From Eledone cirrhosa (lineage: Eukaryota): DNA of 64,000 bases. The DNA is taken from contig OZ024743.1 in NCBI GenBank assembly GCA_964016885.1, positions 317,502,001 through 317,566,000 on the forward strand. Direction: 5' to 3'. The notes beneath the pieces are model-generated. The model was not told the origin of the DNA, made no database searches, and saw only the letters and a program-made list of their open reading frames with translations. Below, piece after piece: positions 6,271 through 60,112 of the stretch. The first letter of the stretch is position 1; every line of letters begins with the position of its first letter. A program made the position numbers and the translations under genes.

Positions 6271-6928
6271 AAGAATTAGTATATCTACCAACATATTTAT
6301 ACAGATGTATACTTACGCTAGCAAAGATATATGTTTTGTCCTAGTAACTTTGTGGTTCAATACAAAGAGATGTAGAACAATTATATAAAAGACGTAAAAT
6401 AAGAAAATTAACTTACTTACTTAAATTTCACTCCAACTAATTAGTTTCTGAAAGGGGTTATACATAGTCTTCAAATGGAGACCATGGAGAATCCTTTCTT
6501 CCTCAGGGAGTCATTCTCGGTTAAGATTCCTTGCAATACGCGGACACAGGGAACTTATACAAAAATAATTCAATGGATGGAAAAAAGCAAGCGCGGACTA
6601 AATTCCAAGACACTGAAAATTTTCCTGCCTTCCTGGTCAGTGGCAAATTCAAAAGAATCAATCACGTGACATCGAGGTTAATCAGTGAGGACTGGGGTGT
6701 TAAAAAGACAGTAGCTAACTAATACTATGAACCATAGTAGTAATTTAGGCAAATTTTTGCTCAACAAAATAATTTGGAGATAATTATAAAGAATTAGTAT
6801 ATCTACCAACATATTTATACAGATGTATACTTACGCTAGCAAAGATATAGGTTTTGTCTTAGTAACTTTGTGGTTCAATACAAAGAGATGTAGAACAATT
6901 ATATAAAAGACGTAAAATAAGAAAATTA
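6271..6928 (-). mobile_element. Retrozyme-like ~520-531 bp family, ~1.25 units
   Basis: AAGAATTAGTATATCTACC repeated at 6271 and 6789; homologous to 19561-20038 and 36175-37370; non-coding; carries a hammerhead. Confidence 0.75.
6430..6511 (-). ncRNA. Type I hammerhead ribozyme
   Basis: Minus strand: ACTCC-CTGAGGA-[stem II]-GAAAC-TAATTA-GTT-GGAGT. Confidence 0.7.
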
Positions 6929-6944
6929 TAGTAATTAATTAACT

Positions 6945-7800
6945 TAAACGGTCGGCACACATCTCCTCCTAAACCGTACGTTCAAATTTCGGTGAAATTG
7001 CTACACTTATAGATGAAGGTCCGGCGGAGACATCGGCCAAAACATTTTCAAATCGACCCACGCCAAGTGCAAAAATCGAATTAGTAATGTATTGATTTTT
7101 CAGTTCAAATGTATAAATAGAGACGAGAGACGAGTTATTTCCCTTTTATGACGTCATTCTGCTTATCTATTTACGTTACGAATAAACGACGCGTGCAAAA
7201 GTACACGAACAACTTTCGGGCCAGCAAAATTTTAACCTGCAAAATTCATGAGTTCGAAATTTCAGCATTAAGCTTCCATTTTGCTTCATTTCCATTAAAA
7301 AGTCTTTTAAAACAATATTTTTACTTGAAAACAAGCCTATTTGAATACACCGTAAAACAAGCAAATATTTTGTAAAAAAAAGCATTGAACTCGAATAAAG
7401 CCTTATGAGATTTTCATTTAGAAGCAATGATTTTAAACGAGACAGATAACGCATTTTTGTTTTGTTTTTCATGTCCATTCAATTTCTTTGTTTCCAAATA
7501 ACTGATAGTTTGGTTACGCTGATGTTTTTCTCCGAGACAAGTGTTGCAGTGTTTACATTTTCGATTTTTGTTAATAGATTACCAGTGCAGTTTTTATCCC
7601 CAGCATCCTCTTTTGTTTTAACATTCGAGTTATGGTTATGTTTTCTTAACTTCATAAGGCATACTCTTGGTTGAGGGAATATTAATCAAAAGTACCACAT
7701 GAAAGTCTACACTGTAGACTCTACAGTTTTTAAGCCAAGAAAGGAACTTAACATTGTAACTTTAACACAACCACCGAGCAATGCAGGGCTTTACTGCTAG
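6945..7800 (+). mobile_element. Non-autonomous Helitron-like element (5' end uncertain)
   Basis: 3' end CCGAGCAATGCAGGGC..CTAG|T resembles the Helitron-type end at 57403-57430. Confidence 0.45.
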
Positions 7801-8219
7801 TTAGAGATTAAAATGTTTCAAGTATTACGGATCAAATTATACAATATATTGGATATATAGCAGGGGAAGCAGATGTTAAACAACAATGACAGTGATGATG
7901 ATGATGATATCTAAGATCAAAGAAAAACTTGAGATAAAAGTCTTCAAGGAGATCAACAAAAAGATAAAATAGTCAATTGTCTGGCTCAGGTCGACAATCA
8001 GATAAAATAGTGAGTTGAGTTGATCAGGTCAAAATTGAAAATAAACTTGACAAAAGCAACTTAAAAACAAAATATCATGTTAGGGTGTGTAATTAGAATA
8101 CAACCTTTGTTTATTTCTGCTTGGTTAAATACAACACTGTCAAGTTTGTTGTCCAATCTAATGTTTTAAGTCTGTTGTATTTGTATAGGAAAGGAATTTA
8201 ATACATTTCTTTGGTGTAA

Positions 8220-58300: not shown

Positions 58301-59250
58301 CATTCGACAAAGTTACGTTTGACGTCGTATTTAAATTTACGGAATCTAGCCTAGAGTTAACATTGACGTCGGGCCTACTATTGTTATCATTATGACGCTC
58401 AGTGTTGACGTTATATATTTTTCTTCCTTGATTTTTTTCTTTCTTCTCTCCTTCCATGCTCGTATTAAATCTACTTTTTCCTATTACAATATATAGAAAC
58501 AAACTTGGACCTTAATTAATTCCTCTAAGTTCATAATTCATTTAACCTAATCTTCATTCACCTTATCTTCTTAATATATTTTATTTTAATAATACATTTT
58601 AATAAATTCCTTTTCGCACATCTTATTAAACCCCTCAATATATAAACCTTAAATAAATAGTATTCTTAATTCCTTTTTCTTTAATCATAAGCATCACCAT
58701 TCATAAACCTCATTAACTTTTAATTTCTTAATTTTTTTAAATGTATTATCTTACAACGGTTTTTTTTTTTCTCTGTGAGACAGTGTTTCTCAGTATTAAA
58801 GGTTATCCCTCTCTCTCTCTCACTCATTTTCTCCTCCTCTCTCATCCTTCCTTCTTATACTCCTCCTCTGTCATCCTTTCCTTATTATTATATTTTTTTC
58901 TTCTATCCATATTTTTCCTTCCTCTTCCTTACCTTTTCTTTCCCCCCTTCCTTTCCTTTTTTCCAATCTCATATATCCCTCTTATTTTATTTTTCATATG
59001 TTGATTTAACATTTCACTACTCGCAAGTGTTTTTTTAGACTTCATATCATGTCACCCTATTTTACCTGATGAGAACGCAAATATCATCCCATAATGATAT
59101 CTGTTTTTGAAATGCGCATAATAAAATACATGGAGCTCTTTTAACCATCTTTTGATTTTATATTATTTATACTCCAGTCCTATAAACTGTTGAGTGCTTC
59201 TTACCCGACATTTGCATTGCTTTATTGTGCTACAATAAAACTCACCTCCT
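55318..59250. mobile_element. Naiad-like PLE 3' end (GIY-YIG on minus ~57730-58230) with inverted pLTR arms (55318-56095 / 58405-59162); hammerheads at 55348-55418 (minus) and 59058-59128 (plus)
   Basis: CNCNCPVRTKSPL..VYECKV..TYFGST; TATTTTAC-CTGATGA..GAAA-TGCGCA-TA-ATAAAATA. Confidence 0.85.
56139..57430 (+). mobile_element. Non-autonomous Helitron-like element inserted in the PLE UTR
   Basis: A|TCTATATATATAAAA 5' end; CCCGAGCAACGCCGGG hairpin and CTAG|T 3' end; no TSD. Confidence 0.7.
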
Positions 59251-59347
59251 ACATATATATATATACATATATATATATATACATATATATATGTATATAT
59301 ATATATATATGTATATATGTATACATATATATATACATATATATATA

Positions 59348-60112
59348 TAATAATAATAACTAGGAATTGATCAACATATATATAAATAAATATAAACATG
59401 AAAAATCACAGGAGATAATTTTTACAAGCGGTAACCACGCATGGCTAGTAGGTAACAAATAAATAAAGTTAACTAGAACTTCAAAAATATATACCTTTTA
59501 ATGATTAATCTTCCCTGTATATATTTCATTAAAGAAATATATTTCACCAATTAATCAGATGGTAAGTCACGGAAAGTGGATATTATTGGATTATCAACAA
59601 GGAAGAACAATATCAAGCGATCCATGTTTACACTTCGAGTCAAAATCTTAAACTGGCCGTTACCACGTGTTGATATTACACATCACAGCGGCTTCGTTTC
59701 AGTGGCGTGAATAGGTATTCGACAACTAGAAATAGCAGTCAATTCCCTTCAACAGAGTTAGCTCTACAATTAAGGAGCAGTATTTATATATCTATATCCA
59801 AAATTAAGATAGATTAAAAGAATTCAATCAGAATCGAAATTGTGGGTGTCATTCCTTAACGGAATGCGCCATATCGCCCGGAAAATAAGCTCTAGGACTT
59901 TGTAGGTACGAGCATTTTATAATAATAACTAGGAATTGATCAACATATATATAAATAAGTATAAACATGAAAAATCACAGGAGATAATTTTTACAAGCGG
60001 TAACCACGCATGGCTAGTAGGTAACAAATAAATAAAGTTAACTAGAACTTCAAAAATATATACCTTTTAATGATTAATCTTCAGGGAAGATTAATCATTA
60101 AAAGGTATATAT
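59348..60112 (-). mobile_element. Retrozyme-like 569-bp unit (~1.3 copies) with terminal fold-back; degenerate hammerhead at 59510-59566 (minus)
   Basis: TAGGAATTGATC at 59361 and 59930; minus strand CTGATTA..GAAA-TATATA-CAGGGAAG. Confidence 0.6.

Follow-up and report, generated by a model that had tools for sequence, protein, structure and literature searches.

How do short repeats that encode no protein come to be copied into new places in a genome? The question is raised by a 64-kb stretch of Eledone cirrhosa DNA (positions 317,502,001-317,566,000 of contig OZ024743.1, in an assembly of 3.0 Gb; hereafter, the window), in which (TA)n runs of at least five units make up 4,710 bases and retroelements are inserted in these tracts. 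Among them are eight insertions of six non-coding families, F310, F476, F520 (three insertions), F548, F569 and F591, whose units each carry a hammerhead ribozyme motif and which lie beside Penelope-like elements (PLEs). Judged by their sequences, the families are real and are retrozymes of the animal kind that lack long terminal repeats (non-LTR retrozymes), as a first-pass annotation of this DNA had read them. Their insertions combine two arms that end at two different fixed sites, and the reading we favour, with a probability of roughly 0.65, is that they are non-autonomous, PLE-dependent retrozymes copied via a circular template.

Insertions pair two fixed ends at a TA target

In each of the six families, arms end on the 3' side at one of two fixed sites, termed S and T, and paired arms use one of each. 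Counted from the hammerhead cut, arm ends lie at 139 or 165 in F310, 261 or 320 in F476, 61 or 171-178 in F520, 80 or 245-253 in F591, 142-148 or 224-230 in F548, and 162-169 or 302-306 in F569. The F310 insertion of the window (32953..36113) consists of a minus-strand arm of 4.25 units (32953-34269) that ends at S (139, counted from the cut) and a plus-strand arm of 5.93 units (34276-36113) that ends at T (165); the arms meet 5' to 5', and (TA)n lies on either side. The F476 insertion is also two-armed (37401-38696, minus strand, 2.73 units, T end 320; 38694-39310, plus strand, 1.31 units, S end 261), as is that of the 531-bp F520 subfamily at 36176..37368 (0.51 unit on the minus strand with S end 61, and 1.76 units on the plus strand with T end 173-178).

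Genome-wide, 997 F310 junctions joined T to TA and 1,164 joined S to TA. On contig C1 (0-222.5 Mb), the 78 T and 100 S ends listed yielded 54 pairs, defined as divergent ends within 16 kb, and every one was S+T (54/54, none S+S or T+T). Further resolved F310 pairs were S+T in 24/24, five more being cut by the stretch boundary, which brings the total to 78/78. In the other five families, 42 of the 47 resolved pairs were S+T and none was T+T; running counter to a strict rule, one locus of a diverged F548 subfamily was S+S, and four loci had one atypical end. Of the 152 arm ends in the five families whose loci were picked by hammerhead core, 133 had (TA)4 within 40 nt, and an independent public sequencing run (X2) contained loose TA ends at both F310 sites. 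The S/T asymmetry was kept in families diverged to about 72-99% identity. Because the target is itself (TA)n, target-site duplications are unreadable.

This architecture is familiar from PLEs, in whose insertions a 5'-truncated copy lies inverted and one end bears a tail (PMC8557442, PMC3846280). For an anole PLE in vitro, the tail is the stretch between two internal reverse transcription (RT) start sites (Frangieh et al. 2024, PMC11167929); the enzyme, a predicted dimer, cleaves both strands of the target and extends them (PMC11167929). The retrozyme insertions here likewise show inverted, 5'-truncated arms joined head-to-head, the window PLEs P1, P2 and P6 are built in the same two-armed S+T manner, and the S+T pairing corresponds to the two internal RT start sites, 3' of the hammerhead, that delimit the PLE tail. 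As the insertions show both the inverted arm and the one-end tail, the idea that PLEs mobilise retrozyme-like families is better supported than the first-pass annotation could show, and we regard mobilisation by two starts on one template as highly probable. The likeness to endonuclease-bearing (EN+) PLEs (PMC8557442, PMC3846280, PMC11167929) extends to the AT-rich target and to the position of the two start sites downstream of the hammerhead. The units here differ in lacking an open reading frame (ORF), in tails of 26-165 nt compared with 30-40 in PLEs, and in having both arms multimeric. Moreover, the S+T rule is near-absolute here, whereas the in vitro study detected no start-site difference between the strands (PMC11167929).

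Two details of the ends deserve mention. At F310 S ends, position 131 is T instead of C in 41/67 terminal units versus 24/736 internal units; either the start is heterogeneous or the base is overwritten by the target primer. In an F520 subfamily, at L169, L173, L175, L187, L188 and L190, the T end enters (CT)n and then (TA)n.

Each insertion carries a single haplotype

We compared 50 F310 loci, namely the window, 9 of 12 earlier-picked loci and 40 from the 54 pairs that were selected for a length of ~0.6-9 kb; L032, L033 and L041 were left out as short, gapped or diverged. Two arms were present in 49/50 loci, spanning 0.2-27 units. Where neither arm was shorter than one unit (44 loci), the two arms shared the same haplotype in every case (17 haplotypes in total), while the chance of such a match for two random templates is 0.135 per locus. 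Variant records per locus comprised 68 fixed, 8 partial and 122 singleton, with non-fixed variation in the arms at 0.86 per kb. The arms overlapped by at least 4 nt at the junction in 17/48 loci (null 0.02).

Over 519 crossings of the cleavage site by these arms, we counted two substitutions and not one non-fixed indel at positions 307-4, and 1/99 5' ends lies within 5 nt of that site, versus 3.2 expected. Run-off or end-to-end jumping on cleaved monomers is therefore disfavoured, and the clean crossings fit either a circle or an uncleaved multimer.

Shared haplotypes would be explained trivially if the second arm were a self-primed copy of the first complementary DNA (cDNA), a fold-back of the kind proposed for PLE palindromes (PMC3846280). 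Of the 44 compatible loci, five would need a loop of at most 9 nt, several of them in the self-complementary stretch 79-123, and 26/99 5' ends fall in positions 63-93. However, in 5/49 loci (L206 borderline) neither arm fits inside the other, and the required loop sizes are uniform over the unit (Kolmogorov-Smirnov (KS) p=0.68). Whichever end the longer arm has (T in 29/49), its partner invariably has the other one. We thus view self-priming as a very improbable origin of the second arm.

In favour of one template per insertion, nine fixed variants, found in every covering unit (up to 25/25), are private to one sampled locus, a privacy that holds among 50 sampled loci of more than 1,000. Several properties of the arrays weigh against rolling copying of one circle. 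The eight partial variants occur in 2-3 copies each; L035 has two variants that recur with a 7-unit period, and L206 has a variant in the same-rank unit of both arms, patterns that suggest later duplication, conversion or a multimeric template. Arm lengths are not exponential (KS p=0.0005, in a sample biased to longer pairs), and rolling copying is demonstrated for F310 only, since F548, F569 and F520 arms are rarely longer than two units. Array homogeneity could also stem from assembly polishing. As for the cleavage step, 1/9 Xenopus retrozyme dimers were cleaved (Li et al., 10.64898/2026.07.22.740005), and in the anole PLE assay the template was predominantly uncleaved RNA, the reaction not requiring hammerhead cleavage (PMC11167929).

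This last result, together with the L035 periodic partial variants and the L206 same-rank variant, fits a template that is a long uncleaved transcript of an already clonal array, used by the same PLE two-start mechanism. With such a template, too, one would expect a single haplotype per insertion, clean junctions at the cleavage site, and 5' ends that do not pile up. It would nonetheless need source arrays of at least 27 units, as well as a separate monomer-to-multimer step for the 17 haplotypes fixed across whole arrays. In addition, no partial (2-3 copy) variant is common to two loci, and no listed junction repeats the same 5'-end pair. We consider a linear template unlikely.

Alternatively, a monomer or short PLE-derived end might insert and the array grow in place by unequal crossing-over, homogenised by conversion, a possibility considered by Li et al. 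(10.64898/2026.07.22.740005). The 7-unit periodicity of L035 and the variants present in 2-3 copies in the longest arrays, L036 and L199, speak for such growth. Against it, both inverted arms are multimeric with shared fixed variants, non-fixed variation is as low as the 0.86 per kb given above, and the 68 fixed versus 8 partial records leave almost no intermediate frequencies; there is little to commend local growth as the source of the arrays. Copying from one circular template remains our preferred reading.

Some further observations concern the F310 unit. The 5'-end cluster at positions 63-93 (26/99 arms) sits beside a long hairpin and may reflect either RT stalling or favoured annealing. 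Between the F310 arms of L036 lies an unrelated GC-rich insert of 272 bp (L036:1899-2170), which has no match in the window and is possibly captured RNA. The unit is near-identical in public runs X1-X6, which carry four organism labels and come from four studies. Self-closing 340-nt contigs in runs X1, X3 and X4 were rejected as evidence of circular RNA, a tandem repeat giving the same result in a de Bruijn graph.

Six dispersed families with one hammerhead motif per unit

Microsatellite-masked self-BLAST, Tandem Repeats Finder (TRF) and arm maps, together with a hammerhead descriptor scan, recovered the six unit classes where the first-pass annotation had placed them. Besides the two-armed insertions above, the window holds five that lie on one strand. 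Two, both single arms, belong to F520: one of the 518-bp subfamily at 6271..6946 (minus strand, 1.31 units, T end at (TA)n, hammerhead C3 at 6506, predicted cut at 6435), and one at 19563..20035 (plus strand, 0.92 unit, S end, (TA)n either side, hammerhead C3 at 19900). The 518- and 531-bp units are 79% identical and are therefore treated as one family. F591 occupies 20082..21887 (plus strand, 3.09 units, T end; U3-A8 hammerheads at 20381, 20972 and 21565, GUC site), F548 13841..14504 (minus strand, 1.23 units, S end; U3-A8 hammerhead with long inserts, C3 at 14146, predicted cut at 13986), and F569 59350..60116 (minus strand, 1.35 units, S end; U3-A8 hammerhead with a full stem III, 59597 to 59518).

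The units are non-coding, as had been proposed: the longest ORF starting with ATG is 30-75 aa per unit, or 135 aa in F476, whose unit holds TA-dinucleotide runs. Unit GC content is 0.33-0.42, and circular folds of the units reach z scores of -2.4 to -6.9 (12 shuffles each). Counted genome-wide as exact core-pattern matches (for F310, a 43-nt core; reversed-pattern controls gave 0), F476 has 8,312, F591 5,851, F520 4,517, F310 4,177, F548 390 and F569 135, dispersed across the genome. The described arrangement, head-to-tail multimers or a monomer plus terminal redundancy, also held in the window and in the genome. Head-to-tail units occur in the window for F310, F476, F520 and F591, F548 and F569 are tandem elsewhere (same-strand matches about 528-570 bp apart), and same-strand matches at monomer spacing are found genome-wide in all six. 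The position of the families in or next to (TA)n was confirmed by the genome flank check and by TA at the arm ends.

Two impressions of the first-pass annotation fared less well. It had taken several units to be unusually large, but published retrozyme consensus lengths span 51-972 bp (Li, Clavereau & Pollet 2026, 10.64898/2026.07.22.740005), an earlier study giving 150-450 bp for animal units (Cervera & de la Pena 2020, PMC7229834). It had also called the system unusually dense; eight insertions are indeed present in the window, but this is a feature of the local (TA)n nest only, the genome holding roughly 0.2 per 64 kb by a rough estimate from the listed places on contig C1.

The proposed single type I hammerhead per unit was upheld by a descriptor that allowed long loops and a U3-A8 pair, set against a shuffle null. 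It found one ribozyme motif per unit, most scoring 10-13, versus 0.06 matches of at least 10 per shuffle (100 shuffles). The weakest of the six families is F548, which scores 9.5 and needs inserts of 83 and 65 nt; one junction-truncated F476 copy scores 8. F310 has a minimal hammerhead with a palindromic stem III, F476 a related minimal one (78% identity over 37 nt), and the 531-bp F520 subfamily a long stem II and a GUU site, while F548, F569 and F591 share the U3-A8 core UUGAUAA. U3-A8 cores and GUU, AUA and GUA sites are known to be active. With stricter scans, 2 and 20 sites were recovered, none of them in F548, F569, F591 or two of the F520 copies. Rfam gave no hammerhead among the best 150 of 170 matches; the motifs here deviate from its models.

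Hammerhead stems were kept or compensated in 19-61 distinct rows per family. F548 keeps its core and almost every stem pair across 26 distinct rows, though one stem III pair is kept in only 16. Double-sided stem changes were seen in F520 (T-A/A-T/C-G at one stem II pair), F476 and F548. Core conservation is inflated, as loci were partly chosen by core pattern; in F310, where 40 loci were chosen by their ends and not by the hammerhead core, 0/68 locus-fixed variants fell on an invariant core base and 47 lay at N7, 10.1 or loop II. Local folds of five isolated hammerheads lend weak support (z -0.4 to -1.2, except F569 at -4.7).

The units are not terminal repeats of PLEs

A monomer with terminal redundancy looks like a truncated PLE, and the units might in principle be pseudo-long terminal repeats (pLTRs) of unseen autonomous PLEs, plain satellites or assembly artefacts. 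The L153 locus, where an F476 arm is collinear with PLE endonuclease sequence, and the inspection of copies in part only would leave room for this. In a tblastn search of ten window PLE frames against 202 loci (overlapping ones included), PLE sequence was nearby in 29; the closest of these, when inspected, were mixed-arm insertions or a mid-domain junction, with no ORF ending in a unit, and none of the fetched copies was the 3' terminal repeat of a PLE ORF. The endonuclease frame at L153, interrupted in mid-domain, is that of P6, an element with its own terminal repeat. We also inspected 40 F310 ends without a listed partner (20/24 T, 20/46 S): in most, a second arm was present but had a variant end, and the rest were single arms, mostly at TA-like DNA; none led to an ORF (0/40, one being without upstream sequence and one without an arm).

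The G family offers a control. Its window copy comprises two short divergent arms (32290..32730, hammerhead 32386(-)), with a further copy at 13500-13755; of its 9,411 genome matches, the 100 listed contain only divergent pairs or singles and no same-strand repeat at 300-600 bp, unlike the monomer-spaced repeats of all six retrozyme families. For satellites or artefacts, the dispersal of the copies and the S/T asymmetry, present both in families ~72-99% identical and in the independent run, are hard to accommodate. In line with the first-pass annotation, the sampled loci thus appear neither as pLTRs nor as satellites free of TA bias, and we give such an explanation almost no credence.

Three candidates for additional retrozymes did not stand. 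Those of G and P6 were set aside as terminal repeats of PLEs, G lacking same-strand repeats. F533, a 533-bp non-coding tandem at 28811-29737 that abuts (TA)n, was left out for want of a full hammerhead. It has 405 exact matches, several pairs of them 524-533 bp apart; near a GGGAC/GUCCC stem common to both, one strand reads CUGAUGA and the opposite one GAAA-CGCG-UA.

A start-site hairpin points to candidate helpers

The autonomous PLEs with hammerhead terminal repeats that had been reported nearby are indeed present, their hammerheads lying at 31224(+), 32386(-), 39533(-), 47772(+) and 55410(-)/59066(+). PLEs of the Hydra clade target (TA)n and are marked by DKT, RWK, a CxCX5C linker, and GIY-YIG at the C terminus (PMC8557442). 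P1 (48003..53999; reverse transcriptase frame 50831-52414 and endonuclease frame 52415-52972, split by a stop) has RWR, DKT and CxCX5C; the relatives of P6 (55312..59249, two-armed, with the terminal-repeat hammerheads at 55410 and 59066) have DKT, CxCX5C and RWI; and P2 (2079..6230, two-armed, with a further copy at 15689-18468) has the Hydra-type linker motif only. P1, P6 and P2 would on these motifs belong to the Hydra clade, and P1 and P6 are candidate helpers. Like Hydra PLEs (PMC8557442), P1 and P6 combine DKT and CxCX5C with hammerheads or hammerhead-like cores and (TA)n insertion; P6 differs in having RWI, not RWK, and the assignment is by motifs only. Variant cores in hammerhead-like folds were seen by eye in P1 (CAGAAGA, 53934-53980) and P2 (CCGAUGA, 5900-6003). 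Elsewhere, relatives of P6 keep their frames open over 809 aa (at L273) and 771 aa, and near-identical P6-type endonuclease copies number at least 150 in the genome, with open frames of up to 809 aa; a genome search for further Hydra families returned only such P6-type copies.

What four retrozyme families have in common with these PLEs is a hairpin. The motif RYUC..GARY starts 5-12 nt 3' of both start sites in F520, F548, F569 and F591 (8/8, background 0.16), and is also found at P1 S and T (2/2), P6 S and G S. At the P6 T site it was forecast beforehand and found at +12, closely like the F548 and F569 T hairpins; it is absent at P5 S. Most likely, to go by this motif, F520, F548, F569 and F591 ride on Hydra-clade PLEs. 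Weighing against such a role, the motif is missing from all F310 and F476 start sites (0/4) and from the Hydra-type P2 S site, it was derived post hoc from the same data, and the predicted fold does not always form it; a comparison of the units with 11 local PLE stretches gave only short low-complexity DNA matches (at most 55 nt). F310 and F476 may use another helper. Four insertions have mixed arms, L053 (F569+P5), L087 (F548+P1 pieces), L153 (F476+P6) and window 28811-31472 (F533+P5), but they do not name helpers, as they are too few and two conflict with the hairpin grouping.

Two further PLEs occur in the window, a 5'-truncated P5 (29738..31472, plus strand, CX4CxxC linker, minimal hammerhead at 31224), which is joined 5' to 5' to the 533-bp tandem, and a two-armed, Neptune-like P3 (22514..28247; DKG, CX4CxxC, GIY-YIG) with a 175-bp tandem in its 3' region (26770-27188). 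Elsewhere in the nest are fragments of other non-LTR retrotransposons (reverse transcriptase, AP-endonuclease type; 61899-63812, 54258-55077, 11495-12166, 44376-44906), short dispersed repeats that recur at other genome loci (1878-2078, 12369-12515, 10452-10639, 31780-32073), and a 34-bp tandem, inverted at 60165-60360 and 61026-61204, flanking 60.4-61.0 kb.

Proposed mechanism and significance

In the model we favour, tandem arrays would be transcribed, and the hammerheads would cut the transcripts to monomers, which would circularise; retrozyme circular RNAs are known in other animals. A PLE reverse transcriptase-endonuclease, probably a dimer, would bind one retrozyme RNA at two sites, each marked, in the four families that have it, by the hairpin 5-12 nt 3' of the start site. 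Its GIY-YIG endonuclease would cut both strands of (TA)n, the enzymology being taken from the anole PLE in vitro, and each cut 3' end would prime reverse transcription, one at S and one at T. Both would copy the same, presumably circular, molecule, rolling round it for 0.2-27 units, and the two cDNAs would join by microhomology into two divergent arms; should one arm fail, the other would join the (TA)n flank. The more specific proposal, in which a PLE dimer clamps circular retrozyme RNA at two hairpins and rolls from both (TA)n strands, with the ~18-nt hairpin setting the helper, we put forward tentatively, the balance tipping slightly against it.

Like known animal non-LTR retrozymes, the families consist of tandem units that are non-coding and low in GC (33-42%), each with a single type I hammerhead; they likewise run to thousands of copies, co-occur with PLEs and have sizes inside 51-972 bp. 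They depart from published ones in the U3-A8 cores of three families and the long stem II/III inserts of four. PLEs were named a 'strong candidate' for retrozyme mobilisation (PMC7229834), a link since backed by co-occurrence and pLTR phylogeny, with local amplification favoured for the arrays (Li et al. 2026, 10.64898/2026.07.22.740005). Of the 57 Xenopus families, 24 have pLTR homology (10.64898/2026.07.22.740005), whereas here only the ~18-nt hairpin is common with local PLEs. The accessible portions of these papers describe no two-armed insertions, fixed RT starts, (TA)n targeting, per-insertion clonality or cis motif shared with a helper, and in literature outside subscription journals and repeat databases, itself accessible in part, we found no description of two-armed, clonal or (TA)n-targeted retrozyme insertions.

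Among PLEs, the Hydra-type P1 and P6 share the start-site hairpin with four retrozyme families, and we found no mention of non-autonomous partners of the Hydra clade in the accessible portion of PMC8557442. The Chlamys non-autonomous elements such as MRC1 are also PLE partners with multicopy head-to-tail insertions; they differ in being green algal, mostly without hammerheads, and generally like their autonomous partner at the 3' end (PMC8557442).

The families themselves join the known non-LTR retrozymes; their interest lies in an insertion record that makes the retrozyme-PLE mechanism directly testable. The route by which retrozymes are copied into genomes has so far been a hypothesis, and more than 1,000 young F310 insertions now record the reaction, with its fixed starts, their strict pairing, one template per event and a candidate recognition hairpin. 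A candidate helper clade with open-frame copies can be named, and short RNA substrates with exact starts allow a test in vitro. The findings also bear on the unsolved origin of the inverted copies in PLE insertions. If the more specific, dimer-clamp proposal is true, a single mechanism would underlie the tail and the inverted copy of PLEs as well as the tandem arrays of retrozymes, and an ~18-nt hairpin common to unrelated retrozyme families and Hydra PLEs would decide the helper.

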